Shown: positions 664 to 27,191, counted from the first letter of the stretch. The stretch: DNA of 32,000 nucleotides from Candidatus Saccharimonadota bacterium (GCA_965227835.1 OZ245768.1:780001-812000), one strand, 5' to 3'. Translations and numbers: made by a program. The notes: generated from the sequence alone by a model not told the origin.

Positions 664-1548
664 TTACAAAATATTTGAAACATCAGAAGATTTAATTGGC
701 TTTTTCACGAATTGATTGGCACTTGAAAAAGATTGTATATTTTGCTTTCTTTCTCTATTTTTAAGAACATCAAGTCTAATCTCTTTTATCTTGTTCATAG
801 TATCCACGAAATGATCATATTTTTCAGCAATACCACAATAAATAACTCAAAGAGAATATTTACTACATGCTTTTGACTGCTCTATATTATGTTTATTCAA
901 AATCTCAAAACTCTTACAATCTTCATGCAAAGTCTTACTTTCAACTATAACTAAATTCTTTAAATTAACCTCACTTTGTTTAGGATTCCTCAAATTCTCC
1001 ATCCTTATTTGAAAATCAATAGTAAGCCTTTCTTCTCAAACCTTGGAAACAAGAGTTATCCTTTTGTATTTAGTCTTTATAGAAGGGCTTATCTTGGGAG
1101 CTTTTTTTCAATCATAAACAGACTGCCAAACTCATTCAAAAAATCTTTTCTTACCCTTAGTCATAACTCAATGTTCTTGACTGGGAAACTCATACCTATA
1201 TTTTCTAGTTATACCATCTGTCTTATGCTTATATTCAAAAAAAGCTAAATCAGAATCTTTGTATAATCTAGTTCTTATTTTTGTCCTAGAATTAACTCAA
1301 TCTTGATGATTTTTATAAAACAAATAATCAGGTGTATCCATATAAACATTATCATAATTAAAAACTCTTCTATCAGCTATTTCCAAAACTCTAAAATCTT
1401 TCTTAAAATCCTTCAATACCAACTCAAACTCAGAGTTTGTCATTAAAAATTTTCTATCTATTCTTTTTAAAAAACTTGCACTAGCATTTAGTTCAGTAAG
1501 AGTAAGTTTATCAAACTCTTTCAAACTAAAATTAAAAACTTTTTCCAT
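664..1548 (-). CDS. VTC (polyphosphate-polymerase-like / CYTH-like) domain protein
   Basis: ATG at 1548, TAA at 664-666, 294 aa with TGA=Gly. The pattern RIDRKFLM...FRVLEIADRRVFNYDNVYMDTPDYLFYKNHQDG..RTKIRTRLY...FFEYKHKTDGITRKYRY matches bacterial VTC-domain proteins. The standard-code track stops at the first TGA (1297). Confidence 0.6.
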
Positions 1549-1942
1549 TTTTATTTTTGTTTTTGTTAGGAATATAAAATATTTTGTGGAAAAATTTAAT
1601 TCTTTATTGATTAAAATTTTTTAACTAAACTTGAAAAAAGACATTAAAATAACTGCTATAGCAGACATCAAAATATAAATTTATCAAACAAAAGTTAAAA
1701 AGTTACTACAAGAATTTTGAAAAATATTTCTAAATATACTTTCTTTAAAGATATTCTATAGTAATTTTTTTAATTTTAAAGGGAAATAATAAACCTCTCT
1801 TTATCCCACTGATTTATGATATCATACTTAAAAAATACTGTCAAAAAAATAAGGAGAAAAAAATATTTTTCTCCTGAAGAAGTCTATAAAGCAGTGACAA
1901 ATAAAGCAAAAAATAAGTTAAAAAATTTTTTAAAAATGTATT

Positions 1943-2980
1943 CTAATCTTTAATTTCGTTTTCAATTATATTAAGTGGTTCATAAAACTTTTCTAGATTA
2001 AGTCAAATCTTTCTAAGATCCTTGTAGTCTATAAGTTTTTTTTCTAGTTTTATATGTAGATTTTCATCATCTCTTATAATATCACTTCAAAAATTATCTT
2101 TAAAATATTTAGCATTTTCCCGTTGATGATTTCAAGCACTATTTTTTAAAGGTATTATGATAGAGTGCAAACCAAAAATATTTTGTTCCCAGAGAGAAGA
2201 ACCTGCTCTAGTGATAACTATATCTGCTAGTTTTAATATTAATCACAATTCTCTAGGATGAAGAAACTCATAAGTTTTAACATTTTCAAAATTAGAAAAC
2301 TCTTGTTTTAAATGAGAATTTTTACTTCAAAGAATTATTTCAAAATCTAGGAAATCAAGTCTAGGTATAATTTTTAAAAGACCTTCTAAGATATTTTTCG
2401 ATCATTGACTTCATCAAATAAAAAGAACTTTCTGTTTTTGATTTTCTTCTAAATCCAAACTATCTATTGAATCTAGAAGATCAGGGTTTAATATTTGTCA
2501 TGATAGTATGTGCTTAGAACCGTCTATATTCTTATTATCAAAGCTATAAAATACTTTGTCTGCTATTTTGGAAACAATACTATTTGAAATCCCAGATACA
2601 GAATCTGATTCGTGTATTAAAAGTTTCTTTCTCATTAGTTTAGCTCAAATGGAAATGGGTAAAGAAACATATCATCATTTTGAAAAAACTATATCTATTT
2701 TGTATCTTTTGATATAAAACAAAGCTTGAATTATTCAAGTTAGATTTTTTAAAGGTTCATAAAAATTTCTAAAATCAAAATATCTTCTAAGTTTTCAGGC
2801 ACTTATGCAATAAAATTCTATATTTAGTTCCTTTGCTGTTTTTTCTTCTAAACTACCTTCTTCTCAAAACCATAAAAATTTATATTTATTACTATCTGAC
2901 AAATGATTATATAGGGAAACTAGAGGAAACACATGTCATCCAGTAGAGCCTCCAGTCAAGGCTATAGTTTTTTTTATCAT
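1943..2980 (-). CDS. murG: UDP-N-acetylglucosamine--N-acetylmuramyl-(pentapeptide)-pyrophosphoryl-undecaprenol GlcNAc transferase
   Basis: MIKKTIALTGGSTGGHVFPLVSLYN... is the GGTGGH motif, and ...IVITRAGSSLWEQNIFGLHSI is the C-terminal nucleotide-sugar motif. I checked the frame codon by codon: there is no TAA or TAG between 2980 and TAG 1943-1945, and several TGA fall in frame. Confidence 0.9.
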
Positions 2981-3152
2981 GGATGAAAAGTATTAAAAAA
3001 TATGTTTTGGGGATTAAATAGAAATTAAGTATTAGATAAATATCTAAACTTCATTATAAACAAAATAGGCAATAAATAAAATAAAAAATATTATCAAAAA
3101 ATTGCTTTTTTAATAAACTTGGATTTTGAAATATTAAAACTTTATAATTCAT

Positions 3153-3878
3153 ATGAAAGACCAAATAAAAAAAATATTTGAAGAGAATGATATAAAACTA
3201 AAAAAAGAAGAGCTAGAAAAGTTTGGGAGATTTTTAGAAATATTTATAGAGAAAAACTCTCAGATAAACTTGTCAGCTATAAGAGAACCAAGCTGAATAA
3301 TATTGAAACATTTTCTTGATTCAGTAATGCTAAATATATTTATAAATTTTGGGGAACAGCAAATACTAGATAATAGAAAGATAAAAATAGCTGATATAGG
3401 TACCTGATGATGATTTCCTTTAATTCCTTTGGCAATTACAAATGAAAAAATAGATTTTTTATGAATAGATAGTGTATGAAAAAAACTAAAAGCAATAGAT
3501 GAGTTTGTGATAGATTTATGAATAAAAAATATAAAAACTATAAATAAAAGAGCAGAAGATGTATGAAAAGATGAAAAATATAGAGAACAGTTTGATTTTG
3601 TAGTTAGTAGGTCAGTAGCATATCTGCCTACACTTTTAGAATATTCTATTCCCCTTTTGAAAAAGTGATGAATATTTTGTGCATACAAGCTAGATGATAA
3701 AGAAGAACTAAAATCATCAAAAAAAATACTAAAAAAACTACAAACAAAAATAATAAAAGTAAAGAATTATAAGATAAGCTGACAAAAAAGGGTTATAATT
3801 TTTATGGAAAAACTACAAAATACACCAAAGAACTATCCAAGAAAAGTATGAATCCCAAGCTTAAAACCCATCATATAA
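3153..3878 (+). CDS. rsmG: 16S rRNA (guanine527-N7)-methyltransferase
   Basis: MKDQIKKIFEEN...LEKFGRFLEIFIEKNSQINLSAIREP..ILKHFLDS, with the SAM-binding loop KIADIGTGGGFPLIPLA. The GGG of that loop is encoded by three consecutive TGA codons at 3405-3413. TAA at 3876-3878. Confidence 0.9.
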
Positions 3879-3954
3879 ATTTATGAATTTTAAGTATTTG
3901 ACCACTATATAAAAAAATATTAATCTTGAAAAGTGAAAAATAGAGAAATTTTTT

Positions 3955-3982
3955 TTGACTAGAAAAGCATTTTTTATATAAT
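3955..3982 (+). promoter_or_regulatory. Sigma70-type promoter upstream of rpsT (TTGACT-N16-TATAAT)
   Basis: TTGACT at 3955-3960 and TATAAT at 3977-3982, about 45 nt upstream of the rpsT ATG. Confidence 0.55.
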
Positions 3983-4027
3983 CACTTTCGTTTAAAACTA
4001 GGATATAAAAATTAAAACTATTAAATT

Positions 4028-4330
4028 ATGCCAATAATACAATCTGCAAAAAAACAATTAAGACAAAGCAAAAAGAAAAAAGCTAGAAATGATCATTTTA
4101 AAGCTCTTTTTACAAAAAGTAGAAAATCTTTTGAAAAAGCTATAAAAGAAAATGATTCAAAAAAAGCAAAAGAAATTTTTTTTAATAAAAAAAACAAAGA
4201 GGGAAAAACCGTTTCTTCATGATTGCAATCTATGATTGACAAGCTTTGTAAAAAAAATATTATACATTCCAATAATGCCTCTAGAAAGAAGTCTAAATAC
4301 TCTAATATGCTAAAATCTTTAAAGGCTTAG
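4028..4330 (+). CDS. rpsT: 30S ribosomal protein bS20
   Basis: MPIIQSAKKQLRQSKKKKARNDHF...IDKLCKKNIIHSNNASRKKSKYSNMLKSLKA. One in-frame TGA at 4223. TAG at 4328-4330. Confidence 0.9.
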
Positions 4331-4352
4331 GTTTTAAATTTTAAAAATTTTA

Positions 4353-4889
4353 ATGTCAAATAAGAAAAGATTATTAAATGATGAAATAAGAGCAAGCAGA
4401 GTTCAGGTTATAACTGAAGATTGAGAAAACTTAGGTAATATGAGTATGAATGAAGCTAGAGATTTAGCTTCAAAAAAGCAAATGGATATCATGGAGATGT
4501 GAAGAAATTGAGATTTAACAATAGTGAAAATACTTGATTATTGAAAATATCTCTACAGACAAAAGAAGCTAGACCAAAAAAATAAAAGTAAGTGAAAATC
4601 TCCTGATTTGAAAACAATAAGGATAACATTCAAGATTTGAGAACACGATTTGCAAACTAGAATAAAACAAGCAGTTAAATTTGCAGAACAATGAAATCCT
4701 CTCAAACTAAGTTTAATGCTTAGATGAAGAGAAAATTGTTATTGAGATTTGGCTCAAGAAAAAATGGAAACTTTTATAAATCTCTTGGGAGATTATTACA
4801 AGATAGATTCCCAAATAAAAAGGAATTGAAATATATTTGTAGCAATGTTGAAACCAAAACCTATATCTCAAAAAGATATAAAAAACTAA
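4353..4889 (+). CDS. infC: Translation initiation factor IF-3
   Basis: MSNKKRLLNDEIRASRVQVITEDG(TGA)ENLGNMSMNEARDLASKKQMDIMEM...LRGRE...IFVAMLKPK. It sits in the canonical infC-rpmI-rplT order. TAA at 4887-4889. Confidence 0.9.
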
Positions 4890-4915
4890 AAAATATTTAT
4901 TTAAAATAATTAAAG

Positions 4916-5110
4916 ATGTCACTAAAAACTAGAAGTTGAGTAAAAAAAAGAGTAAAAGTTACTTGATCAGGAAAAGTTAAATTCCAAAAGGCAGGTAAAA
5001 GACACTTGCTTATGAATAAAAATAGAAAAGCTAAAAGGGCTAATAAGTATGGATCTCAAGCATCTCCTAGTGAAGTAAAAAGAATATTAAGACAAATCCC
5101 TTATTTGTAG
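4916..5110 (+). CDS. rpmI: 50S ribosomal protein bL35
   Basis: MSLKTRSG(TGA)VKKRVKVTG(TGA)SGKVKFQKAGKRHLLMNKNRKAKR...; 64 aa; TAG at 5108-5110. Confidence 0.9.
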
Positions 5111-5218
5111 AATATTTTAGAATTTTATTATGAAATAACGAATTTTATAATAATTTAAAAAGTGGTAGTTATTTTTGAGAGTCTATTTTAGCAAAATATA
5201 TTATTTAATTTTATAAAA

Positions 5219-5563
5219 ATGGTTAGAGTTAAAAGAGGTACAATGACAAAAAAGAGACACAAGAAGCTTTTAAAGTCAACGAAAGGGTTTAGATTATTAA
5301 ATTCAAGAGTTTTTTCTAGAGCAAAAAATGCTTGGATGAAAGCATGATTAAATTCTTATATAGGTAGAAAAAAGAAGAAAAGAGATTTTAGGAGACTATG
5401 GAATGTTAGGATAAATAGTTCGGCAAGAGAAAATGGAACCACATATTCCAAATTAATTTCAGATATGTACAAAAAAAGAGTTAAGTTAAATAGAAAAGTT
5501 TTATCAAACTTAGCTATATCAAATCCAAATGTTTTTTCAAATATAGTTTCCTTTGTAAAGTAA
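5219..5563 (+). CDS. rplT: 50S ribosomal protein bL20
   Basis: MVRVKRGTMTKKRHKKLLKSTKGFR...RDFRRLWNVRINSSARENG..YSKLI; TAA at 5561-5563. Confidence 0.92.
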
Positions 5564-5583
5564 AAATTTAGTTTTTTAAAGTT

Positions 5584-5610
5584 AAAGCCCGTGCATTCTG
5601 CACGGGCTTT
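5584..5610. terminator. Bidirectional intrinsic terminator hairpin (aaagcccgtgca-ttc-tgcacgggcttt)
   Basis: A perfect GC-rich stem flanked by A-runs and T-runs. It lies between the convergent rplT (+) and secreted paralog 1 (-). It recurs almost identically at 6263-6290. Confidence 0.8.
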
Positions 5611-5617
5611 TGGTAGT

Positions 5618-6109
5618 TTAGGGGAATAACTGAAAAACGAAGTTTTTATAGGCTATTTCCCTTTCTGGAGAAGGTTGGTTGCTATAAATGAATTGATATT
5701 GTAAAAATGAAGGCATACTCTTATGGTTGCTTCTAGTAATTTCAAACAAATTACCAGAACTTGTTTCAGGAAGTGTAAAGGTTTTTTCAGGGAAATTTTG
5801 ATGATTTATTATTATATCCATTGAAAAAAAATTTACTTCACAACTATTAATAATATATCCTTTATAAACAAAACCACCATCCAAAGTTTCTTCGTATTCA
5901 AATATAATACAGTTAACTCCTGTCTCTATGTCTACGAAATGCCATTCTTTGACAGAACAAGGATTATTAGAATTCTCTATATCAACACAAATGGTTCCTT
6001 CAGAAACATCTCTAAATGCTTCATATGAAATATTCTGCTCTGAAGCAGATAATACAAACGATAGAGACAAAGAAATGATTGAAAGAACAACAGATGTAAA
6101 AATTTTCAT
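5618..6109 (-). CDS. Secreted four-cysteine protein, paralog 1 of a three-member family (function unknown)
   Basis: Intact 163-aa ORF with no TGA. It has the signal peptide MKIFTSVVLSIISLSLSFVLSAS/EQ, an AGGAG Shine-Dalgarno site 7 nt upstream, and the conserved motifs F.DIETG.NC and LFEI.RSN shared with 6236-6808 and 8400-8915. Confidence 0.8.
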   Translation of the reverse strand: MKIFTSVVLSIISLSLSFVLSASEQNISYEAFRDVSEGTICVDIENSNNPCSVKEWHFVDIETGVNCIIFEYEETLDGGFVYKGYIINSCEVNFFSMDIIINHQNFPEKTFTLPETSSGNLFEITRSNHKSMPSFLQYQFIYSNQPSPEREIAYKNFVFQLFP

Positions 6110-6145
6110 TTTAAACTCCTTTTTTGGAAAAAATTTTTTACCATA

Positions 6146-6216
6146 CTCTTCAGATATCTGAAAAGTATAAGGATTATAATAATATAAATTTAAAAGTCAA
6201 ATAAAAATTTTGACTT
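6146..6216 (-). promoter_or_regulatory. Promoter, operator and 5'-UTR hairpin module of paralog 1
   Basis: On the minus strand, TTGACT (6195-6200) and TATAAT (6173-6178) are separated by a 16-nt spacer. The -35 lies inside the inverted repeat AAGTCAAA-N7-TTTGACTT (6194-6216). The 5'-UTR palindrome ctcttcagatatctgaaaag is at 6146-6165. The module is near-identical at 6845-6915. Confidence 0.65.
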
Positions 6217-6235
6217 ATTTCAAATTTTGACTTTT

Positions 6236-6808
6236 TTATAAATTACAACTCTTTTTAAAATCAAAGCCCGTGCATTTTGCACGGGCTTTTAGAAAATTTA
6301 ATCAAATTTGTTCATAGAGGTTATTTTCTTCTACATCAAAAAGAATTTTTTCATAATCATCAAGTTCACTTGGAGAGGATTCATTGTAATAAAAAAATTC
6401 ATATAAAAGTATAGAATTTAAACCTCTAAAGTTAGATCTTTTAATTTCAAATAAACTATCAGAGCCTAATTCAGGAATTTTAAAAGTCTTTTTAGTCAAT
6501 TTTTGAGTAACAAGTTCATCTTTTTTTGTAATAGGTTTTTCACAACCATAAACATAATAATTATGAGTAAATATGTAATTTGATACAGTATCAATATTAA
6601 CTATTTTACAATTAAATCCTGTCTCTATATCTAAAAAAAGATATTTTTTACTATGGCATGAGGAAAGGTTTTTATCAAGAGAACAAATAATACTTTTTCC
6701 AGGAATTTCCCTAAATGCTTCATCTGAAATATTCTGCTCTGAAGCAGATAATCCAAAAGATAAAAACAAGGAAATGACCGAAAGAACAACAGATGTAAAA
6801 ATTTTCAT
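6236..6808 (-). CDS. Secreted four-cysteine protein, paralog 2. The position homologous to the stop is TGA, so under code 25 the ORF runs on to TAA 6236-6238.
   Basis: MKIFTSVVLSVISLFLSFGLSAS/EQNISDEAFREI... The first ~35 codons and ~110 nt upstream are near-identical to paralog 1 at the DNA level. The standard-code ORF is 6302-6808. The codon at 6302-6304 is TGA, after which 21 more sense codons cross the terminator hairpin. Confidence 0.7.
6263..6290. terminator. Intrinsic terminator hairpin, a copy of the 5584-5610 element
   Basis: aaagcccgtgcattttgcacgggctttt differs by 1 nt from the 5584 copy. It lies just downstream of the standard-code end of paralog 2. Confidence 0.75.
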
Positions 6809-6844
6809 TTTAAACTCCTTATTTTGAAAAAATTTTTTACCATA

Positions 6845-6915
6845 CTCTTCAGATATCTGAAAAGTATAAGGATTATAATAATATAAATTTAAAAGTCAAA
6901 TAAAAATTTTGACTT
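6845..6915 (-). promoter_or_regulatory. Promoter, operator and 5'-UTR hairpin module of paralog 2
   Basis: -35 at 6894-6899, -10 at 6872-6877, inverted repeat at 6893-6915, UTR palindrome at 6845-6864. This duplicates 6146-6216. Confidence 0.65.
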
Positions 6916-7101
6916 CTCTTAAATTTATAAAAAAATTGATTTTTATATATAAAAAATAGTTTAGGAGATAAAAAACTTTCGATAAATTTTAAATGAATAG
7001 AAGCCAAAAGTATAGAACATTTTAATAATTGTATCAATGAAATACTATACAAATGAAATATAGATGAAAATATACTGGAGTCTATAAGAAGATTTTCATA
7101 T

Positions 7102-8334
7102 ATGATTATATATCTTGTTGAAAAAAATCCGAAAGAATGGAAATCTAAAATTTCAGAAGATTTAAGGCATGACATTGTAAATATAACCTGAATTTTTAAT
7201 CAAGTCTACTATGGGTCTGCTATGAATAAAAAGAATTGAGAAATAACTGAAGAAGATAAAGAAAGAGTGGTTAATCTAGTTAGGGCATTAAAAGCTAGTA
7301 TAAATAATATATACATACTAAACTATTATATTGAAATATCCCAATGATACATTTCAGTTGGAACATATGAAAATAATTTAGTAAATTTATTTCATCCTTT
7401 AAAAGAAGGAGTTAATGAAAGTTGTGAAGTAGAAATAGAATCAAAATGAGATTTCCCTATTATAAGTAATTTTCCTTTTTCATATATTTATAATTTATTA
7501 AATAATATGATTAAAAATGCCTATAAGCATGGAGAAGCTAAAAAAGTAAAAATTATTTTTCATGTTTCTGAAAAAGAAACAAAAATAGAAATATCTGATA
7601 ATTGAAAATGAATAGATGAAAAAATTGTATGAGACATTTTTAAAAAATGATTTTCTGGAGGTTGAAGCACATGATTATGATTATCTTCTACCAGAGAAAT
7701 ATTAGATTTAATATGATGAAAAGTTGAAGTAGAAGCCAACTGATGAATAAACTGAATACTTCCCTACATACCAGAAATATCAAAAGATATATTAGAAATT
7801 AAGTCAGAAAAATATAAAAATTTAAACTGAAAAATATTAACAAAGAATAATAAAGAGGTTAATAGTTTAATTATAAAATCAATGGTAGAAAAAATATCTT
7901 GTGATCAGGAATACAAGAATGTTATTATCAATTTTTTTAATGATATTTTAGAAATTTGAACTTTAAATAATGTAATATTTTGTTTATATAGTATAATATT
8001 ATATATGATTGAAAAAAATGATAGAACAGAAAATAATGAAATTATTAGAGAAATTATTGAATATATTTTAGAGAACAGGTGAAAATACAATAAGATTAGA
8101 GAAAAATTATATTATATTATGCAAAAGTTAAACATTGATACTGATTTTGAACAATTTTATGAAGGTGATTATTTATATGACTTAATAATTAATAAACTTC
8201 AGAAAAAATATAATATAAATCTCCCATTTTCAATTCAAAAAATTACTAAAATTATAAATCAAGAGAGAAAAGAAAAAAAATGTAAGTGAGTAAAATTTAC
8301 TATCTTTATACCAAATAAATCTATATTTCATTAG
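7102..8334 (+). CDS. Soluble histidine-kinase-like protein (H-box + HATPase_c) with a C-terminal extension of about 190 aa. The N-terminus is uncertain.
   Basis: H-box-like SEDLRHDIVNITGIF; N-box NLLNNMIKNAYKHGEA; G1 ISDNG(TGA)KG(TGA)ID; G2 GFSGGGSTGLGLSSTREI, with many TGA=Gly codons. TAG at 8332-8334. The frame is open from 6931 and the upstream part looks coding, but there is no ATG, GTG or TTG before ATG 7102. No transmembrane segment is visible. Confidence 0.7.
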
Positions 8335-8363
8335 ATAATTTTTCTTGGGATTTTCATTAAAAT

Positions 8364-8395
8364 AAAGCCTACAAATCTTACGATTTGTAGGCTTT
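8364..8395. terminator. Bidirectional intrinsic terminator (aaagcctacaaatc-ttac-gatttgtaggcttt)
   Basis: A perfect 14-bp stem between the convergent HK-like gene (+) and paralog 3 (-). Confidence 0.8.
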
Positions 8396-8399
8396 CTGG

Positions 8400-8915
8400 T
8401 TATTCTATATAATAAGTAAAAAATTTATTATAAGTATCTTGTTTTAAAAATACTCCTCCATAATAAAAAATTTGATACCGAATAACCATAGGTTCAGTAG
8501 GTATTCTTATTATTCCAAACCAATTATAATGGTTTCCTTCATGAAGAACAAACTCTTTTCCAGTTAAATCAGATGAAGATTCTATTGTAGGTAAATTTTG
8601 AAAATCTTGTCCACATTCTTTAATTTCATATTCATGAAGAGAATAATTTGTAATATCTACAGTCAAAGTTCTGTTATTTATAATACAGAAAAAACCAGTA
8701 TCAATATCATAAAACTTATAAATAGTATCTGTCAGTGTCTGACCACAGGGAACTTCTATTTTAAGATCCCCTATATTATCTTGAAAAGGACAAGCATATA
8801 TAATTTTACTTATTTCACTAAATTCCTTTGCAGTAGTGCTACTTACTTCAGTAAACATTTCTGCATATGAGCCAAAAGAATATAAAAGTAAAACAATAGA
8901 AACAAGAATTTTCAT
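8400..8915 (-). CDS. Secreted four-cysteine protein, paralog 3
   Basis: Intact 171-aa ORF with no TGA. Signal peptide MKILVSIVLLLYSFGSYA/EM. It shares the four Cys positions and the motifs YDIDTGFFCII and IRYQIFYYG with paralogs 1 and 2. Confidence 0.8.
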   Translation of the reverse strand: MKILVSIVLLLYSFGSYAEMFTEVSSTTAKEFSEISKIIYACPFQDNIGDLKIEVPCGQTLTDTIYKFYDIDTGFFCIINNRTLTVDITNYSLHEYEIKECGQDFQNLPTIESSSDLTGKEFVLHEGNHYNWFGIIRIPTEPMVIRYQIFYYGGVFLKQDTYNKFFTYYIE

Positions 8916-8951
8916 TTTAAACTCCTTTTTTGAGAAAAATTTTTTATCACA

Positions 8952-9026
8952 CTTTTCAGATTGTAATCTGAAAAGTATAGTATTTATAATAATATAGAAC
9001 TGAAAGTCAAATTTAAATTTGACTTT
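8952..9026 (-). promoter_or_regulatory. Promoter, operator and 5'-UTR hairpin module of paralog 3
   Basis: Perfect 24-bp palindrome AAAGTCAAATTTAAATTTGACTTT (9003-9026) containing the -35 (9005-9010). The -10 is TATAAA (8983-8988). The UTR hairpin is cttttcagat-tgta-atctgaaaag (8952-8975). Confidence 0.65.
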
Positions 9027-9060
9027 ATGATTTTATTTTTATAATAAATATTAATTATTT

Positions 9061-10253
9061 TACCTGAATTAAACCCCGAAGTGCAATTTTTTAAATGAAC
9101 TTAAAGAAGAAAATATAGCATTAAGAAATTTTTTATTTTTGAGATTATAAAAAATTTTGTTATAATTCCAAATACAACATTAAGATTGTGAAAAGTGTGC
9201 TTGATTAGGGGAAATAAATCAAAGTATTTCTCTAGGAGTATTTGCTAATATATCGCAAATACTTTTTATTTTTTCATCACTTACATAATCAAATATAGTT
9301 CATTTAGGAAAAAATCTCCTGATAATCCTATTTAAATTCTCAATACTTCACTTCTGCCAAGAAGAATAAGGCTCACAAAAGTAAGTATCTATTCATATAT
9401 CATTTAATAAATAATGCTTAGCAAATTCCATTCAATTATCAAAAGTAACAGATTTAATTCATATATCATCTTTAACTCAAGCTATTAGATTAATTATATT
9501 TTCACTTGATTTATCTTTTATTTTAAAAATTTTAGGTAACCTAGTCTTTCTATCAACCAATGTAAGTATAGCTCATTTAAATCATTTTTTAGAAACAATT
9601 AAATCAGCTTCAATATGTCATTTTTCTTCTCTGTTATTTATTGTTTCAGGTCTATTTTTAATACTAACTCTATTTTTAATTTTCACTCTTTCTGTTTGTT
9701 GTTTTTTCTTTCTATAACCTTTATGTTTATATAATAATAGTTCTTTATATTTATTTCACATACCAGTTTCTAGCCAAGAATATATACTTGTATGGGAGAT
9801 ATGTTTCTTTTTATCTGTTTGAGTATTATTCCGTTTCTTAGCAATTGTTTTTGGGGACATTTGTATTTCTGTTATTGATAGTTGTTCTATTATGAAATTT
9901 TTCATATTAGTATTCATATTTATCTTCATTGATTGAGTTTTTGTTAACCATCGTCTTTGATATGATTTGATTTCTGCTTCTAGTGCTAAATATACTTTTT
10001 TATTGTTTCATCGTTTTTTTACTGAATTTCTGTATATCTCTCTGCTTATTGTTGATTCTGATCTTTTTAGTATTGATGCTATATCTTTTTTCTTTAATCA
10101 TTTATTTAAATGAAATTCAATACTTTCTCTCTCTTGGAATATTAATTGTCAGTACATATCTTATTATATTAGAAAATAATGTTATTACCCTACGGGGAAT
10201 ACTATATTTTCTTCTCTTTTAATTGCACTTCATTTCTTACTTTGGGTTAGGTA
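9061..10253 (-). mobile_element. IS30-family insertion sequence (about 1.19 kb) with imperfect terminal inverted repeats
   Basis: The left end tacctgaattaaaccccgaagtgcaatt (9061-9088) matches the reverse complement of the right end aattgcacttcatttcttactttgggttaggta (10221-10253). They share TACCT, AACCC and an exact GAAGTGCAATT core. The element encloses a DDE transposase gene. Confidence 0.75.
9180..10157 (-). CDS. IS30-family DDE transposase
   Basis: MYG(TGA)QLIFQERESIEFHLNKG(TGA)LKKKDIASILKRSESTISREIYRN...GHIEADLIV...LTLVDRKTRL...TFDNGMEFAKH...CEPYSSWQKGSIENLNRIIRRFFPKGT...ANTPREILGF. 325 aa, with about a dozen in-frame TGA. TAA at 9180-9182. Confidence 0.9.
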
Positions 10254-10264
10254 AATTATTTTTT

Positions 10265-11575
10265 ATGGAAAAATATAAATTAAGCATTGCATGAGGTTGA
10301 TCTGTTAAGAATTCTTCAATAACTCAAGCAAGAAAATCATTGGAGGAAAGTATAAGATCTGTAGACAAAACTACTCCCAGTATAGAAGAGTTGAGACAAG
10401 AACCTTTTAAAAAATGGAAAAGTTTTGTAAATTCATTAAAAAGTAATTGATTAAATAGAAACAAGAAGAATTTTTTAATTGTAGGTACTTGATGAACATT
10501 CCAGTCAAATCAAACAGAAAATTGAATAGCTCCTGATGGATGAACTTTGAAAGATTGTATAGATGCAATAAATATACCTTTAGAGGATTGAGTGAAAAAT
10601 ATACATATTCATGACCTGATAAATCTTGATTCTTCTCAAATGGAGCTTAACCATTGGAAATTTTTAGCTGAATGTTTAGATTATTTAGAAAAAGAAGCTT
10701 CTTGATATTATGATTGAATAATAGTAACACATGGTACAGATACTATGGCATATTGAGCATCTCTTATAACATATATGCTTTCTGGTTTCCCAAAACCAAT
10801 AATATTTACTTGAAGCCAAAAACCAGCAAGAATAGAATGAAGCGATGCAGGACCTCAGATGAATAGAGCAATAAAGTGACTACAATTATTATCTGCAAAT
10901 AATTGTCCATTAACAGTAATATGTTGTTGAGTAGCCGGTATAAATTCATTCTTCTCTAAAAAAGCATGAGATCATATAGAAAATGCTTTTCAATCATATG
11001 CAGATGATTATTTAACACCACCTGTTTTGGAATGAAGTTTATCTCAAGAAATTAATCAATACTATATTAGATATAGAAAAAATCATGCTAGTATGTATAA
11101 ACCATTTTTTGATTTAAAAGAGGATTGTTTTATATCTGAAATACCAAGTTTTGAAATATGAACAAATGAACTTATAAGTATAATTAGCAATACAAGGATA
11201 GGACTTATAAAAACTCTTTGAAGTGCTACTTGTAGAGATGATATAGCAAAGATTATAGTAGAAGCTACAGAAGCTTGAGTTTTATCACCAGTAATAGTAC
11301 CTCCTTTTGCAGATGCAACAATAGAACCTGGTACTTATGAAGCATGAGCTATATTATGAAAAACAATAGAAAGGGTACAATGAAGTATACCAAGTATAAT
11401 TATGAGTCCTGATGCAATAAGAGCAAAAATGATATTTGCTGCTAATTACACAAAAATTAATGAAAAAATTTACAAAAAAGAATTATTTGAGTGATACCAA
11501 ATAAGAAATTTTTTTAACTGTATATTATCAAATATAGCATCACAACCTGAATTTCCTTTTGGAAGAGATAAGTAG
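10265..11575 (+). CDS. L-asparaginase / glutaminase family protein (type I-like) with an N-terminal extension of about 70 aa
   Basis: FLIVGTGGTF carries the two Gly of TGGT as TGA TGA. Also present are IIVTHGTDTMAYGAS and FTGSQKP. 436 aa; TAG at 11573-11575. The ATG is only 12 nt from the right end of the IS30 element. Confidence 0.75.
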
Positions 11576-11671: not shown

Positions 11672-13111
11672 TTATCAAAAAAACCTAGAAAGGTATAATA
11701 TTACCAAGTAAGTTATAGAAGCTATAATTCAAGCAACTGGTAAAGTTACGACCCAAGAAAGTAAAATTCATTTTAGTTTTGATTTTTCTATAACTGATTT
11801 ATTTTTCCCTTCGTTTAATGTTAAATGCTGTCTATAAAGACCTATACCAAAAACTCAACCCAAAGCTATTTGAGTAGTGGAAACAGGCATTCACATAGCA
11901 GAAGCTATTATTACAGTTATAGCTGCTGATAAAGCTATACAATATGCCCTTATTTGATTAAGTTTTGTAATTTCATTTCAAACTGTTTTTATTAATCTAG
12001 ATCAAAAAACAGCCAATCATAAAGAAAGAAATAAAGCTCCCAGAATCATTATCCAAGAAGCTATTCAAACTTTTGAAGAAGTATCCATAATATCAATTCA
12101 TGAATTTTTCACAGAATCATAGACAGCTGCCAAAGGTCAAATAGCATTTGCTACATCATTTGAACCATGAGCAAAACTCAAAAGTGCTACAGCAAAAATT
12201 AGAGGTAAGTTAAATAATTTGTTGATAAACTTCTTTTTATCTTTGAAAAAAGAACTTTTTTGTTTTTTGAAATGGACTATAAGTAGTGCATAAGATAAAA
12301 ATCAAATCACACAAGAAACAAAAATGGCAGTGGTAGTAAAATCAAATCAATATGTATTTAAAAAATCCCTAGCAAAACCAAGTTTGTTTTTAAATCATTT
12401 AAGTATTAAATAAAGAGAAAAAACACAAATCATTATAGAAACATAGATAGGGACCCAAAGTTTTGCTGCTTCTCACCTATCCTGCTGATTTAATATATTT
12501 CTTCTAATAGATATAAATATAGCTATTGAGATAAAAGCTCCCATAAAAATAGCTACAATCCAAGCTAAAGCAACTTTTGAAACCATTCCCCAGTTTACTA
12601 TTGAGAGTCAGCTTGATGTAATTCAAGCTCATATCAAACCTCAAAATATAGCATGAGTAATAGAAACTGGAGCTTTAAAAAAAGTAGCTGTATTTACCCA
12701 GATAGCTGCTCAAAGTAAAGTAGCAAGCATTATAGCTATAAATTCTATTGAAGTTTTATCTATCATATTGGGATCAATTATTCAACCTTTTATGGTATCA
12801 ACTACATCTCATCAAGCTATAAGAGCTCAAGCAGCTTCAAAAATCATTGCTATTGTGATAGCTCATCAAAGAGTTAAAGCTTTGGCTCAAACTGCTGGTC
12901 ACATATTGTTTGCCACATCATTGGCTCATAGATTTATGGCCATATAAATAGCAAAAATTGTAGCAAGCATTAAATAAATATGAAGATTCTCATCTATACT
13001 TGGAAGTTCGAAGAAATAAACATATCCTATAAAAAATATACATGCCACAGCAAGAAGCACATATTTTAAATTTGAGATATATTCATTTTTTATATTTAAA
13101 GTTATTTTCAT
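11672..13111 (-). CDS. Inorganic phosphate transporter, PiT (PHO4) family
   Basis: It has two copies of the family signature: G(TGA)ANDVANNMG(TGA)PAVG and HGSNDVANAIG(TGA)PL. It is polytopic and hydrophobic, 479 aa. I read the frame through with no TAA or TAG. TAA at 11672-11674. Confidence 0.88.
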
Positions 13112-13467
13112 TTTTTGTATTTAGAATTTAAAGAAAAACTGAAGGGTCTGTAGCAAAATTAAAATTTATGAAAAAATAATCTTTTTTGCTAATTTTCACC
13201 AGAAAAATTTTTGTTTTTTAAAACTAAGAAAATAATACCATTTTTTTTTATGAAGTTAAAGAAAATCAAATTTACAACAAAAAAACTTATTGATAAAAAT
13301 AAATAATTTCTGAAATAAGTGTTAAATATAAAATATACTTTGAAAGAAAAATTTGGGTATCAAAAAAGAGTAAAATTCATTATATTATATTTTACTCTGT
13401 AATAATATTCTCTGTTCTTATATAAAGGTAAAAAATAAACTCTATAAAGTTCCCTATATGCTCTACT

Positions 13468-13550
13468 CCCCTCTCCTACCAAAAGGAGAGGGGCTGGTGG
13501 TGAGGTTTATAAGGAAATGGCTCTCAAGTGAGGTTTATAGGGAAAGGGTG
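13468..13550. repeat. GC-rich REP-like element: one hairpin plus two direct repeats
   Basis: Hairpin cccctctcc-taccaaaa-ggagagggg (13468-13493), followed by gtgaggtttata[a/g]gga(a)a[t/g]gg at 13500-13520 and 13528-13550. It is a sharp GC-rich island in AT-rich intergenic DNA. Confidence 0.6.
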
Positions 13551-13596
13551 GGATTAAGATGGCTAAAAAAGAGAATAAATATATTTCTCAATTATT

Positions 13597-14334
13597 CTAT
13601 TTTTTAAAACTTTCAAGTATTTCTTTTGCTATATCTTTTCATCAAAGACCAAAGGCTAAACCTCAAGCAATAGTAAGCATTGCTATAAATCAAGTTAAAA
13701 TAGTATCTATTATAGTTTGATCAACAAGCTTAGTATAGTTTAAAACAACTATAAGTGTGAAAAAAAGTATTATAACCTTAGCTCAAACAGCAAGTACTTT
13801 GGATAAAGATTCTTGTTTAGCTATATTCATAGAATGATATATTATATCATGTATAAAATTGGCAAACCTAATACCAAAAAATAAAACTATTATTCATATA
13901 AAAAGACTTGGTAGATAATTAAGTAAATCATCCAAAAAAGTCTCAACTTCATTTGTAAATTTAGTAACTGACCACCTAAAAAAAAGTAGGAATACATAAT
14001 AAGAAAAAGCCTTTCCTACGACTTGATCTATCTTTATTTTTTTACCAAAAACTTCACTAAATTTCTTTTTTGTTTTTTTGTTTTTTACATTTTGTTTGCT
14101 TGAATCATCTGTTTCAAACTCTATACTGAATTTATCAATAAGTTCCATTATTTTGAATTTTTTGAATAAAAATACAACAAACCTATAGATAAAAAGAGAT
14201 ATAATAAATCAAATAATAAGTATTATAATCGACCAAAATATATCTGGTCATTTTTCAATCAGAAAATCTTGCATACCTCAAAAAATTTGATCTTTTATCT
14301 TTAAACTGTTTTCTTTTACATTTAATTCTATCAT
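13597..14334 (-). CDS. Small multi-pass membrane protein resembling 'conserved TM helix' / MscS-associated proteins
   Basis: MIELNVKENSLKIKDQIFGG...; 245 aa. The C-terminal ...FIAMLTIAGGLAFGLGGKDIAKEILESFKK resembles the TM_helix repeat signature. TAG at 13597-13599. The start overlaps the ruvX stop by 1 nt. Confidence 0.45.
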
Positions 14335-15204: not shown

Positions 15205-15470
15205 TTTTTTGATTAATTTTGTAAATTAAAAATATTATATTTATATAAAGATATAGTTCAATATGTTTTTAAGGAAAGGCTGAAGAATTCCTTAATTATA
15301 ATAAATAGCTTTTTATTGACATATAAATAAAAACATTTAATATATCTTAGTAAATTTGATAAACACAAAATTAAAAAATTATGATACAGGTAAATATTCA
15401 AGAAAATAATTACAATTTTTCTCAAGTAAAATATATAGTATATCAACTTTGAGAGTTGATAATAGATAAT

Positions 15471-16175
15471 ATGTTTAGTAATTTGAAAGTTCAAGAAAAA
15501 CCTTGAAAGGAAATTGTAACATGGTTAGATAAGGAAGTTGAGAAAGAAGCAAAAAAACTAATTAAAAGACATTACTGAAATGTGAATTTCGTGTGAGAAG
15601 AATTTTGAGAGGAAAATAATTGAAGTGAGATAACTTTTATAATAGATCCCATTGATTGAACAGAAAGTTTTGTAGATAGATCTTTTAACACAAGTATAAG
15701 TATTTGAATTTTGATATGATGAGTTATGGAGTATTGAATTGTTTATGATTTTATGAAAGGTTTTTTATATGAGTGAAAAACTAATCCATGCATATATTTT
15801 AGAAACAAAAAAGTACCTTTTTTAAGAGAGAATTATTCTGAAAAAACTAGAGTTTTAATAAGTGGTGGATGAGAAGAAATTGATGAATTACAGTATAAAA
15901 TTGGTAATAATAATGATTTAAAAGTTATAAGAAGATATTGATCTATAGCTTTACAATTAGTTGAAACATGAGCTTGAAATTATGATTCTTTTATAAGGGT
16001 TTGAAAAGTAGGATCTCGGGATATTGCTTGAGCAATGCCTTTTATAAAAGGGTTAGAAGATATAGTCATATTATCAAGAAAATGAGAAGAGTTTGATTTT
16101 AAAAACCCTGAAGATTGATTTATAGTGGTGAAAAAAACATTAAGAAAAGAAATTTTAAATACACTAGATTTATAA
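15471..16175 (+). CDS. Inositol monophosphatase family protein
   Basis: VG(TGA)EEFG(TGA)EE...ITFIIDPIDG(TGA)TESFV is the metal-binding motif, and ...SRDIAGAMPFIKG is the WD-x-AAG-like motif. 234 aa; TAA at 16173-16175. Confidence 0.8.
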
Positions 16176-17606: not shown

Positions 17607-18296
17607 TTAAAGACCTTTATATTTAAATTTAGCAAATTTTTGTGAAAAAGAAGATTTTTCCTCAATTCTTTTTTCACTTATAGATTCAAGTCTTTCTAGA
17701 TATTTATTTTTTAGAACAAGTTCACTACTTGGTAGTTTTTCAATTAAATGTAAAATTTGGCTAGATAAAAATTGAAATCTACTTTCAGGTTCTGAAATTT
17801 CAGTGTTATCTAATATATCAAGTAAATTTTCAATTTTTCTACAAAGTACCTTTTGATACAACTCATAAATTGATTCTTTGAGTTTTCATAAAAAATCTTT
17901 TTCTTCTGCCCTTTCTATTAAGTCCCTTAAGTATTCATGAGAAATATTTTCTATAGAATCTTCATAGCTAAATAATACTCAGTGTAGCTCTTGAAAAAGT
18001 ATTTTTTCATATAAATCAGGAATTTGTTTTTTAATACTAGAAACTCCAACACCCTGTCTTTCTGCAATTTCACAATCTTCTTTAAATTTTTTATAATAAA
18101 AAGGAGAATAATTATTGTCTACTACTTTACATAATGATTCTTGAACTCTTTGATAAATTTTTTCTTTTTCAGAATCTGATGGAACTACAGTATGCACTGA
18201 GTATTTGGCTGCTATAATAGCTCTTTCAGCTCATGAATCTTTTTTTCCTTTTTTAGGATCAATTTCTAGTTTACCAGTATCGATACTTGTTGTCAT
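17607..18296 (-). CDS. Hypothetical protein (229 aa), helical and acidic. It occupies the position upstream of nusA where rimP is usual.
   Basis: Joining track ORFs 17979-18197 and 17607-17861 (same frame) through TGA codons gives one ORF from ATG 18296 to TAA 17607-17609. I recognise no family. A hairpin at 17516-17551 separates it from nusA. Confidence 0.55.
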
Positions 18297-20145: not shown

Positions 20146-20787
20146 AGTGATTAATAGTATTAAAAAGATTAAACCAATAGTGCTTTTTTGACTCATATAT
20201 TCAAAGAGTGCCATTGCTGAAACAAAATTAAGTTGCGAGAAAATATTTGATTATGATAACACTAAACTCTATGAAGAAGATTTATGAAGATACCAAGAAA
20301 TAGTTGATAATTTTATTAGTATAAACGTTATAAAATTCAAAGAGTGATTCTTAAATATGTATTTTTCAATTGAAAATCAAAAATGATTTTTTATTGGTAA
20401 AAATTGAGATATAAAATACATATTTGATATATCATCTGGAAATTCTGGTTTGTGAGGATTAAATTTTGATACTCCAAAAAATATCATAATAGATAAATCA
20501 GAAAATAAGTGGCATCAATATGCAGTAGAATCAGATGAATGAAAGTTTGGAGAAATATGAAGTATTATACTAAGTTTATGAGAATTTTACCAGGACAAAG
20601 AGTGATTTTTTTGAATAGAAGGGCAGATATATCAAGTAAAAGAAAATAAATGAAAAAAATATATAAAGAGAAATAGTTGAAGAAACTATACTCTCCCATA
20701 TTGATGAAATTTATTTTCATCAATACATACTACGACAAATTATGGAATAAGAAGATTATGAGAAAGGGTGTCAAGTTGATGTATTAG
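20146..20787 (+). CDS. Hypothetical secreted protein (213 aa); probable GTG start
   Basis: (V/M)INSIKKIKPIVLFG(TGA)LIYSKSAIAE is a signal-peptide-like N-terminus. I read the frame codon by codon from 20146 to TAG 20785-20787, with many TGA=Gly. The stop codon lies inside the IS5 target-site duplication. Confidence 0.55.
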
Positions 20788-20788
20788 A

Positions 20789-21994
20789 GGGACCTCTGCA
20801 ATATTGTTGAAAAGAACAAGAAAAAAGTGATTTTGAATAAAAATCACTTTTTTTGAAGAATATATAAGATAATTTCTATGAATTATGCCTTTTTTTAGGT
20901 ATAATTTCCAAATTTAGGCACAATTCACCTATTAGAAAGCTATATATACCTCCTTGCCAATAGTTCAAAATTATAAATAGCACAAGATAAAAACCAGTGC
21001 ATAGCATTCTTAACTAATCATCTATATCTTGTTTTATAATTTCAATATTTAGCCTTTAAAATAGAAAAAGGATGTTCTACTCTTGCCCTAATAGTAGATT
21101 TAATTCTATTTTGTTCTTTTTGATAAGAAGTCAACGGATTATTTCTAGATCATCTTTCATTGAACTCTCACTTAATTCATAACTCATCTAAAAATTTTAT
21201 TTTATCTTTACTTATATAGGCACTATCTCAATATGCCTCTTCACTCTCATCTCAAGTAATTAAAGTATCAGATAATTGTGAATCATGTATCTTAGCTGTC
21301 GTATATGTTGTATTCATTACAAAGTCTCCTCTCTTTGTTGTTTCAATATGAGCTTTATATCAATGATAACTTCTTCAATTCTTCTTTGTAAAACTAGCTT
21401 CCTTATCTCTTGTATTTTCTCATTTATTATTCTTTCTTCATTTTGGTGATTCTATTATAGTACCATCTTGAATAAATCACTTTTCTACTGTAAATCACAT
21501 TTCAGCTAAAATAAATTGAGTCATTGTAAATATAGTTTCCTGACTTCAGTTTTCTGATAATTCATTTCTAAATCTACATATTGTTGTTTCATCTGGTATA
21601 TCTTTAGATTCAGATATTCATAGAAACTTTTGAAAGCTATTTCTGTCTCTTATTTGATCTTCTATTTCCGGATCTGATAATCCATATAGTCATTGAAGAA
21701 ATAGTATTTTTAACATTTTTTGTATTTCCATTCTTGGTCTTCAAACTCATCAATCTGATATTTCTCTAGATAAATTAATTTTATTTGATATTGATTCCCA
21801 TGGGACTACTTTATCTAATTTTGTTAGAAACTTTTCTGTTCTTGTAATTCATAACTCATTTTGGAAATAATTCAAAAATGTTTGTTGTTCTTTAAATGGT
21901 GACATAATCATTAAAAAAAAATTAAAATATTTATCATATTTTAATCTTTTTATTATATTTTTGTAATTTAAATCTATCTTTTTGCAGAGGTCCC
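20789..21994 (-). mobile_element. IS5-family insertion sequence (1206 bp) with 13-bp perfect inverted repeats and a 4-bp TAGA target duplication
   Basis: GGGACCTCTGCAA at 20789-20801 matches the reverse complement of ttgcagaggtccc at 21982-21994. It is flanked by TAGA at 20785-20788 and 21995-21998. Confidence 0.85.
20940..21905 (-). CDS. IS5-family DDE transposase
   Basis: MSPFKEQQTFLNYF...GGVGRPRMEIQKMLKILFLQGLYGLSDPEIEDQIRDRNSFQKFLG...PDETTICRFRNEL...IQDGTIIESP...YHGYKAHI...TTAKIHDS...YGDSAYIS...RARVEHPFSILKAKYG.YKTRYRGLVKN. 321 aa, many TGA=Gly. Confidence 0.9.
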
Positions 21995-25495: not shown

Positions 25496-25523
25496 TTGAC
25501 AAATTTTAAAATAAAGTTATAAT
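25496..25523 (+). promoter_or_regulatory. Consensus sigma70-type promoter (TTGACA-N16-TATAAT) for small membrane cassette 1
   Basis: TTGACA at 25496-25501 and TATAAT at 25518-25523, followed by the GGAGG Shine-Dalgarno site and ATG 25586. Confidence 0.6.
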
Positions 25524-25585
25524 GTTCCACGTAACTTTTAAAGTTATCAAATTTAGTTCTTTTAAATTTAAAATGGAGGAAAATT

Positions 25586-25981
25586 ATGGATACTCTTATA
25601 ATTCTATTTCTTATTGCTTGCTTGATTGTACCTATTATTATATATGAAATTGTGAACCATTTTCAAAAAGGAGGAAAAGAGAAAGAAAATATAGTAGAAG
25701 AAAAAAAAGATATAACAAATGAGGTAATGGGGGAAGACTCTAACAGTAGTTTTCATCCTAGCATCTTAATTCCAATAGGTTTTGTATTAGTTCTGGTTGC
25801 ACTTATGATTGGAGCTACACAAGGTCCTACTGCGTCTGAAAAAGGAAAAATAGTGGTATATTTCATATTAGGATATTTTGGTTTTGCTATTGGTGCTGCT
25901 GTTATATTAACAACCATATTTTTTTTTATTGAAAAAATAACAAAAAAAAGGGGGAAAGAAAAGCAAGCTCAAACATGCTAG
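25586..25981 (+). CDS. Small three-TM membrane protein (131 aa) ending ...KQAQTC; cassette 1
   Basis: Intact ORF with no TGA (11 Gly, all GGN) and a strong GGAGG Shine-Dalgarno site. It shares about 40 nt of 5' flank and about 80 nt of 3' end and terminator with the cassette at 26241. Confidence 0.7.
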   Translation: MDTLIILFLIACLIVPIIIYEIVNHFQKGGKEKENIVEEKKDITNEVMGEDSNSSFHPSILIPIGFVLVLVALMIGATQGPTASEKGKIVVYFILGYFGFAIGAAVILTTIFFFIEKITKKRGKEKQAQTC

Positions 25982-26011
25982 AAAAAACTCTAGTCATATA
26001 GAGCTTCAATC

Positions 26012-26045
26012 AAAGAAGGACTTCCTGCAAAGGAAGTCCTTTTTC
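26012..26045. terminator. Intrinsic terminator (aaggacttcct-gcaa-aggaagtcctt + T-run); a copy recurs at 27192-27225
   Basis: An 11-bp stem followed by ttttctttt. Confidence 0.75.
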
Positions 26046-26240
26046 TTTTCTAAATTTATTTATTGAGTATCTACACCATATGCACAATATGTTATGAACT
26101 CACACATAACGGTATTTTTTGACTTTGTTCATAAATCATTATAATCCTGATTACAATCTTATTTAACTTAATTTAAAGTAAATATGAATATAAATATATC
26201 ATAAATTTAGTTCTTTATAAATTTAAAACAGGAGGAAATT

Positions 26241-27188: not shown

Positions 27189-27191
27189 ATT

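Follow-up and report, generated by a model that had tools for sequence, protein, structure and literature searches.

Genes that a bacterium has acquired from elsewhere are reportedly recognizable by their atypical codon usage, as laid out in the amelioration model of Lawrence and Ochman. Codon-defined regulons are a second described case, exemplified by bldA/TTA in Streptomyces and by tRNA cleavage by MazF-mt9 in Mycobacterium tuberculosis. Among bacteria that read TGA as glycine (genetic code 25), phages lacking in-frame TGA have been predicted for Gracilibacteria and Absconditabacteria; exchange with standard-code bacteria has been proposed, and these phages possibly infect standard-code bacteria as well (Liu, Jaffe, Chen, Bor and Banfield 2023, mBio, PMC10746230). 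The Bacteroidia, for their part, are known to dispense with Shine-Dalgarno (SD) sites apart from rare genes such as rpsU of Flavobacterium johnsoniae (PMC7797042, PMC13000453). Here we analyse a 32-kb stretch of DNA from Candidatus Saccharimonadota bacterium (GCA_965227835.1, OZ245768.1:780001-812000; hereafter the window, 32,000 nucleotides (nt) in full) together with one 9-kb contig of a related strain. Three independent features of standard bacteria coincide on the same six genes of the window, which encode three secreted paralogs (p1, p2 and p3) and three small membrane proteins (m1, m2 and m3): no in-frame TGA, an SD site and generic AT-rich codon choices. The best reading, which we hold with about half confidence, is that these genes are accessory cassettes drawn from a pool of code-neutral mobile genes in which the standard code and SD sites are in use.

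TGA is a glycine codon in the window, since translation table 25 yields textbook motifs and intact conserved proteins: it restores the MurG motif TGGSTGGH as well as GyrA, SecA, NusA, IF3 and ribosomal proteins. Open reading frames (ORFs) of at least 100 amino acids (aa) total 13,695 aa with TGA as sense versus 3,226 aa with TGA as stop. The G+C content is 26%. The sole tRNA of the window is tRNA-Ser(GGA), which was also the only match of an Rfam scan of the window at the gathering threshold; neither a tRNA-Gly(UCA) gene nor prfB, encoding release factor 2, lies within it, and BD1-5 genomes have been reported to lack prfB (PMC6851277). The closest homologs of the transposase of the window's IS30 insertion sequence (IS) belong to Ca. 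Gracilibacteria metagenome-assembled genomes (MAGs), at 54% and 69% identity. The six coding sequences (CDS) are the following.

5618-6109, minus strand: p1 CDS, secreted protein (163 aa; signal peptide, 4 conserved Cys); 6 GGN glycine codons, no TGA; stop codon TAA
6305-6808, minus strand: conserved coding part of p2, 168 aa; 6 GGN, no TGA
6236-6304, minus strand: in-frame TGA of p2 (6302-6304) and read-through of 22 codons to TAA (6236-6238); 190 aa in total
8400-8915, minus strand: p3 CDS, 171 aa, secreted; 10 GGN, no TGA, one CGG
25586-25981, plus strand: m1 CDS, membrane protein of 131 aa; 11 GGN, no TGA; stop codon TAG
26241-26543, plus strand: m2 CDS, 100 aa; 5 GGN, no TGA, one CGG; core unrelated to m1
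30141-30506, plus strand: m3 CDS, 121-aa membrane protein, glycine-zipper tandem repeat GFILGGTL; 19 GGN (18 of them GGA), no TGA

Together these genes hold 57 glycine codons and TGA is none of them, whereas in the 28 other genes of the window TGA provides 356 of 508 glycine codons (70%; the remaining 152 are GGN). Its place is taken by GGA, which makes up 63% of glycine codons in the six genes versus 9% elsewhere. An earlier note on this DNA had drawn attention to the six genes; our recount gave identical numbers for each of them and exactly 13 TGA among the first 22 glycine codons of gyrA, for which the note had estimated about 13, while the background that it had assumed to be roughly half proved higher. 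Among 34 genes, 0.10 would be expected to be TGA-free by chance at p = 0.70, whereas 5-6 are seen, a comparison that answers the objection of having picked, after the fact, those genes that appear intact in the standard code. Most of the 19 glycines of m3 come from a 24-nt tandem repeat, leaving about 45 independent glycine codons in the six genes; the probability of finding no TGA among 45 is ~3e-24 at the background rate and ~2e-13 even at the rate of ribosomal-protein genes (11/23). Furthermore, in-frame TGA is absent from all 854 codons, where base composition alone predicts ~15. A general avoidance of the TGA trinucleotide was considered and rejected: off-frame TGA is normal in the six genes (1.3% and 4.5% in the two other frames, versus 1.6% and 4.9% in the other genes, i.e. 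equal), and avoidance is hence specific to the reading frame. Thus, the complete absence of TGA is real and highly non-random.

Neither high expression nor accessory status in general accounts for this pattern, as the earlier note had also maintained. All three IS transposases use TGA freely (IS30, 14/16; IS5-like, 20/23; IS200-like, 6/7) and lack SD sites. Since the mobile IS DNA of code-25 lineages is TGA-rich and SD-less, mobility by itself does not impart the signature. TGA occupies 10 of the 12 glycine codons of infC. The ribosomal-protein genes were likewise said to use TGA freely; they do use it (11/23), but at a rate below that of other genes (345/485, p = 0.03). Two details of the note needed correction. 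The range 20146-20787, offered as a TGA-using hypothetical gene, contains no plus-strand ORF, the actual gene lying at 20357-20872 (minus strand unchecked), and the end it placed at 6302 for p2 is, in code 25, an in-frame glycine codon (TGA, 6302-6304), from which the ORF runs on to the TAA at 6236-6238. An effect of membrane or secreted proteins as a class was rejected, as other membrane-protein genes (11672-13111 and 13597-14334) carry TGA at 60-70%.

The same genes are set apart by their initiation signals. Two scans were made, one of the 20 nt preceding each gene start and one of all occurrences of AGGAG, GGAGG or GAGGA in the window. Correctly spaced canonical SD sites occur only at the six TGA-free genes and at a MazF toxin gene, and neither scan found an SD-like motif upstream of any of 25 other genes, including rpsT, rpmI, rplT, rplI, infC, nusA, secA, gyrA, murG and the three IS transposases. 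SD sites and TGA-free status are associated (Fisher p = 7.7e-6), a correlation limited by the MazF gene, which has an SD yet uses TGA for 5 of its 7 glycine codons. SD-less initiation looks like a property of the lineage, as none of 12 genes on two other Gracilibacteria MAG contigs has an SD. Promoters follow a similar distribution: exact matches to TTGACW-N15-19-TATAAT number 7 in the window against 0.43 expected, five of them upstream of the six genes and one upstream of rpsT, and those of m1 and m3 are perfect (12/12). The near-consensus promoters, strong SD sites and terminators that the earlier note ascribed to the cassettes were all found again.

5584-5610, minus strand: intrinsic terminator hairpin of p1, 12 bp, -20.7 kcal/mol, 7 nt after the TAA
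6116-6216, minus strand: p1 expression signals, TTGACT-16-TATAAT (6173-6200), hairpin in the 5' untranslated region (5'UTR), SD AAGGAG (6116-6121)
6194-6216, minus strand: operator-like palindrome of p1, AAGTCAAAATTTTTATTTGACTT, overlapping the -35
6263-6289, minus strand: p2 terminator hairpin, 12-bp, G+C-rich, near-identical to the p1 hairpin
6815-6915, minus strand: p2 upstream signals, promoter (6872-6899), palindrome (6893-6915), 5'UTR hairpin, SD AAGGAG
8364-8395, minus strand: p3 terminator, 14-bp stem
8922-9025, minus strand: p3 upstream signals, TTGACT-16-TATAAA, 5'UTR hairpin, SD AAGGAG
9004-9025, minus strand: perfect palindrome of p3, AAGTCAAATTTAAATTTGACTT
25496-25585, plus strand: m1 promoter and leader, TTGACA-16-TATAAT (25496-25523), SD GGAGG (25575-25579); leader common to m2
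25956-26061, plus strand: m1 3' module, with the last 5 codons, 3'UTR and terminator (26013-26044); common to m2
26119-26543, plus strand: m2 cassette, TTGACT-15-TATAAT (26119-26145), SD AGGAGG (26230-26235), CDS 26241-26543
30059-30140, plus strand: m3 promoter and SD, TTGACA-16-TATAAT (30059-30086), SD AAGGAG (30129-30134)
30580-30615, plus strand: m3 terminator, 15-16 bp stem
30971-31390, plus strand (30960-31390 with SD GAGGAGG): MazF/PemK toxin gene, Pfam E = 8e-22

Codon choice beyond glycine (p = 2e-34 for its usage in the six genes versus the others) differs for two amino acids. ATA makes up 41% of isoleucine codons in the six genes versus 65% in other genes (p = 4e-6), and AGA 46% of arginine codons versus 79% (p = 2e-4); the remaining amino acids show no difference. 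Ribosomal-protein genes are without this shift (ATA 50-87%, AGA ~90%). The G+C content (0.26-0.34) and the G+C content at third codon positions (GC3, 0.11-0.22) of the six genes both fall inside the range of the other genes. A comparison of codon signatures with the background, as the earlier note had suggested, thus bore out a distinct usage of Gly, Ile and Arg codons within the window, but GC and GC3 are native-like.

Conserved flanks around divergent cores are the second hallmark of the cassettes. Relative to p1, p2 is 43% and p3 25% identical. The family has a Sec-type signal peptide and 26 invariant columns, including 3 Cys, and nearly all of its glycines stand at non-conserved positions. 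While the mature-protein regions have diverged almost to randomness, p1 and p2 share 91-100% identity over a stretch that begins at the palindrome, takes in promoter, 5'UTR hairpin and SD and ends with the signal peptide, and likewise at the terminator; the upstream region of p3 retains 82-86% identity. An AF2 model of p1 is all-beta after the signal helix (pLDDT 69), and a Foldseek search of the PDB with this model found no match (best TM 0.28). A palindrome of 22-23 nt (AAGTCAAATTTAAATTTGACTT) lies over the -35 box of all three p promoters and looks like an operator for a dimeric regulator. In the related strain the palindrome of p3 (about 1155-1180 of the contig) reads AAGGTCAAATTTAAATTTGACCTT, with both arms changed and symmetry kept.

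The membrane-protein genes m1 and m2 repeat this architecture: they have ~35 nt of leader in common, and their cores are without any similarity. Conceptual removal of an IS200-like element leaves m1 and m2 sharing a collinear ~95-nt 3' module (last five codons, 3'UTR and terminator), the element having entered the m2 cassette precisely at the junction of the shared 3'UTR with the terminator. As both families keep conserved flanks around unrelated or hyperdivergent cores, their structure suggests exchange of cores by homologous recombination between standard flanks. The cassettes do not share the anatomy of integron cassettes, each having its own consensus promoter and Rho-independent terminator, and there is no integrase in the window; they lie singly among housekeeping genes, with rplT, secA, gyrA and similar genes as neighbours. 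Two of them adjoin IS elements.

9180-10157: IS30 copy next to p3
22829-25435: secA
26576-27187, minus strand: IS200/IS605-type element in the m2 3' module, with tnpA (26636-27073; TGA 6/7, no SD) and subterminal hairpins at both ends
27188-27241: displaced copy of the m2 terminator, now against the end of gyrA
27242-29755, minus strand: gyrA

The contig of the related strain (L001, ~9 kb, from an independent metagenome assembly) carries p cassettes in the same housekeeping context as the window. A p2-type allele occupies its slot 1; the replacement corresponds to window positions 5600-6055, at 57-69% identity, and is delimited by the signal-peptide region and the terminator. Most of the p3 CDS is deleted (contig 1050-1252 versus window 8450-10352), with promoter, 5'UTR, last 14 codons and terminator kept, and the IS30 copy is absent. 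Hence, the cassettes vary in presence or allele between strains. Over window positions 849-8450 identity between the strains is a mosaic (84-100% per 100 nt), the pattern expected of a recombining population. Synonymous divergence amounts to 0.11-0.30 in housekeeping genes and 0.02 in p2; we rejected the low value for p2 as a sign of recent cassette transfer, as neighbouring genes also contain blocks of 99-100% identity in a sliding window. Of ~98 aligned glycine codons, a single one shows a TGA/GGA change between strains, and with turnover this slow a TGA-free state can last long without selection.

The end of p2 deserves separate consideration. Its TGA stands at the place homologous to the TAA of p1, 11 nt before the hairpin where the TAA of p1 is 7 nt before its own. 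Reading through in code 25 would cross the terminator hairpin, and both p2-type alleles of the related strain have the same TGA, one of them reading on into the antisense of rplT; on these grounds the TGA marks the real end of the conserved protein. A standard-code stop codon that had entered a code-25 cell would have just this appearance, although a single TAA-to-TGA mutation may be an alternative origin.

In the databases searched, no homolog of the cassette proteins was found outside the source species. The p family, m1 and m3 (m2 was not among the queries) gave only self or strain hits against 5.8e9 proteins, as did the p family in an exhaustive HMMER search of 1.84e9 representatives. Searches of IMG/VR, INPHARED phages and PLSDB plasmids revealed no relatives, and those of Pfam, PHROGs, PADLOC and NCBIfam nothing above curated cut-offs. 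Two weak HMM hits (P0006 and P0007) were set aside as unrelated repetitive proteins, and a pattern scan for promoter and 5'UTR in JGI metagenomes and IMG/VR returned only chance hits inside coding regions. The relatives in standard-code bacteria or phages that the earlier note had proposed to look for did not appear in these databases.

We propose that the coding sequences and translation signals of the six single-gene cassettes were shaped in a standard-code, SD-using pool. The likely source would be code-neutral mobile DNA, such as TGA-free phages or elements reaching both code-25 and standard-code cells, or, alternatively, DNA taken up from the bacterial host of an episymbiont-type lineage. 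Within a Gracilibacteria-like chromosome, homologous recombination would have put the cassettes in place and reshuffled them, using as conserved flanks the promoter, leader and signal peptide at the 5' end and the 3'UTR and terminator at the 3' end. Donor-type features would have been kept (no in-frame TGA, GGA for TGA, ATT over ATA, the SD, the TGA stop of p2) and may persist since amelioration from GGN to TGA is slow, or since ongoing exchange renews them, or both. Transcription would start from very strong sigma-70 promoters, the p family being probably controlled by a repressor whose binding site would be the palindrome overlapping the -35. Judging by their sequence features, the cassettes would yield, for the p family, small beta proteins that contain Cys and are exported and, for the m genes, small membrane proteins of the cell envelope.

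Of the three explanations offered by the earlier note, namely acquisition from a standard-code donor, selection against TGA and a need to be decodable in another cell, the acquisition family is favored by the SD sites, the Ile and Arg codons, the stop-position TGA of p2, strain variability and the two cassettes beside IS elements; that the acquisition was recent is not demonstrated, no donor or homolog having turned up and the GC being native. Several observations weigh against an outside origin. The GC and GC3 are those of the host genome, and any donor must therefore be equally AT-rich. No donor emerged from the homology searches, and no phage or transfer genes were seen adjoining the cassettes. 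In the study of Liu et al. (PMC10746230), all integrated prophages of these phyla were TGA-rich. Finally, the p family is only 25-43% identical while its flanks stay at 82-100%, a divergence that could equally mean in-situ diversifying selection with TGA actively avoided.

This last point leads to the strongest alternative, which we regard as possible but doubtful: that these are native, fast-evolving envelope genes held TGA-free and SD-led by selection, so that their translation is independent of tRNA-Gly(UCA). Decoding of UGA could, for instance, be limited or sabotaged by stress, by a tRNA-cleaving toxin or by a phage reinstating UGA as a stop. In an otherwise SD-less transcriptome, a strong SD would confer ribosome priority, and under such conditions the terminal TGA of p2 would act as a stall or stop. 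Every allele and paralog is TGA-free despite such low identity and glycines mostly at non-conserved positions, and normal off-frame TGA places the avoidance at the level of translation. Lineage-restricted ORFans are expected of native, rapidly evolving genes, and the native GC accords with them. SD and leader are kept among paralogs with diverged cores, and the compensatory change of the palindrome in the related strain suggests a local regulatory circuit. The MazF gene lies 460 bp from m3, and in M. tuberculosis tRNA-cleaving MazF toxins are known to bring about a codon-specific reprogramming of the proteome. Yet MazF itself needs 5 TGA codons, and the window gives no sign of conditional UGA decoding. 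The ATA and AGA shifts are not expected from selection on UGA alone, and neither is a TGA exactly at the stop position of p2; both the other membrane proteins and the highly expressed ribosomal-protein genes use TGA. Upstream of mazF, the 340 nt at 30620-30960 contain hairpins, no Rfam match and no obvious MazE antitoxin ORF.

It is tempting to speculate that code neutrality itself is the selected trait, the cassettes being portable expression units that would be exchanged with standard-code partner cells or expressed in them, or else would stay translatable during a shutdown of UGA decoding, which could follow attack by a standard-code phage or a tRNA-targeting toxin; we consider this somewhat improbable.

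A further reading, which is quite unlikely, is that translation is selected to be fast or accurate in genes expressed at extreme levels, so that slow TGA, ATA and AGA would be purged; consensus promoter and SD together would make for a very high ribosome flux. All three are NNA codons, classically slow in other bacteria; the six genes have the best promoters of the window and, the MazF gene besides, its only SDs, and the ribosomal-protein genes are modestly TGA-poor (11/23 versus 71%, p = 0.03). The latter nonetheless keep ATA at 50-87% and AGA at ~90%, and their TGA rate still leaves the absence of TGA unaccounted for (P ~2e-13, as above). The rpsT promoter (3955-3982) is equally good, yet this gene uses TGA and ATA. 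Moreover, expression bias is usually graded, and complete avoidance is not typical of it.

Less likely still is that the cassettes were built for expression in a standard-code host or prey cell after DNA transfer, by analogy with T-DNA. All signals for an ordinary bacterium are indeed present and near-consensus (sigma-70 promoter, SD and terminator), SD and TGA avoidance appear needless in the resident genome, and the products would be small secreted or membrane-active proteins. Against this, neither transfer machinery, border repeats nor an origin of transfer occurs near the cassettes, which are scattered singly among housekeeping genes; the putative operator of the p family suggests regulation in the resident cell, and we know of no bacterium-to-bacterium precedent. 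That the genes are spurious ORFs, an assembly chimera or standard-code contamination is barely credible: chance standard-code ORFs of 100-140 aa do occur antisense to real genes in so AT-rich a window, and m2 has only 100 aa, but the p cassettes recur in the same housekeeping context in an independent assembly, promoter, correctly spaced SD-ATG and terminator accompany every one of the ORFs, all of which encode a signal peptide or transmembrane helices, the 26 invariant columns with 3 Cys support real genes, and the GC is native.

Some further features of the window may be recorded here. In the plus-strand region 3-509, low-complexity GN/TVGTF repeats come after a truncated fragment of an IS200/RAYT-like tyrosine transposase with the HUH motif PNHLHLIV; this region is TGA-poor (2 of 14 glycine codons, 8 being GGG), with a GC of 33% and an ATA share of 0.22, and might represent either a pseudogene or a further gene from outside. 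A hypothetical gene of intermediate codon usage at 17607-18296 on the minus strand (TGA 3/8, ATA share 0.30, no SD) could be a partly ameliorated acquired gene. The intergenic region 13440-13570 contains a G+C-rich hairpin, CCCCTCTCCTACCAAAAGGAGAGGGG, followed by two copies of GTGAGGTTTATARGGAAA, with no Rfam hit at the gathering threshold.

A second codon may have an altered meaning. In an alignment with solved structures, the CGG at 16017-16019, codon 213 of an inositol-monophosphatase-family (IMPase) gene (15381-16175), falls on the Trp that is invariant in the 'WD' motif of IMPases, a hint that CGG may be read as Trp in the source organism. CGG as Trp has been proposed for Absconditabacteria and some Gracilibacteria (PMC8629427). 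CGN is very rare in ordinary genes (9 of 7,595 codons, 3 of the 9 being CGG), and the CGG of MurG occupies a variable position. In the TGA-free genes CGG occurs twice in 854 codons, at aa 146 of p3 and aa 7 of m2; the latter sits in a basic N-terminal stretch, where Arg fits.

The implications reach beyond this locus. A reassigned stop codon is an all-or-none tracer of where a gene has evolved, and the coupled SD is a second, independent one, which raises the question of whether these ribosomes use SD sites at all. If the cassettes derive from standard-code cells or code-neutral elements, genes cross into a code-25 lineage and persist there, and they would help to identify the hosts, donors and phages of Gracilibacteria-type episymbionts. 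If selection maintains the signature instead, the cassettes would represent the first class of genes whose defining trait is not to depend on their organism's own code, which would matter for the contest between phages and hosts over what codons mean and for designing recoded, biocontained organisms. In complete code-25 genomes, TGA-free genes are predicted to be SD-bearing, ORFan, flanked by conserved modules and strain-variable.

Set against the known systems, the cassettes resemble TGA-free phages in being DNA associated with code-25 hosts that has no in-frame TGA and reads the same in both codes. Those phages tolerate TGA at gene ends with a later stop close by; in the one such case here, p2, the backup stop is 22 codons on, beyond the terminator. 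The phages, however, are whole genomes tied to their hosts by CRISPR spacers, whereas each cassette is a lone chromosomal gene in housekeeping surroundings, without neighbouring phage genes or significant PHROG hits; nor is an SD contrast of this kind described in the phage study (PMC10746230). Phage morons offer another likeness, being small genes with their own strong promoter and intrinsic terminator between unrelated genes, and often encoding small membrane or secreted proteins. Unlike morons, the cassettes lack a prophage context and form families with conserved flanks and swapped cores. With acquired genes as the amelioration model describes them they share atypical codons (here Gly, Ile and Arg), IS association and strain-variable presence; they differ in their normal GC and GC3 and in having no donor homologs, and their tracer is a reassigned stop codon, all-or-none and coupled to an SD that the resident genome does not use.

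The likeness to the SD-less Bacteroidia is that of a genome almost without SD sites in which a handful of genes have a strong one. The SD gene of Flavobacterium encodes an autoregulated ribosomal protein, whereas those of the window encode ORFan envelope proteins, as we predict them to be, and a toxin; sequestration of the Flavobacterium type may not apply, as Gracilibacteria are frequently without bS21 (PMC9297842). Codon-defined regulons, too, consist of genes set apart by one codon whose decoding can be switched, but regulated UGA decoding has left no sign here, and this analogy serves only the alternative of native selection. Taken together, the cassettes are of a known kind, combining the code-neutral DNA of code-25 bacteria with compositionally atypical accessory genes; what is new is their chromosomal single-gene form with conserved recombination flanks, coupled to an SD dichotomy.

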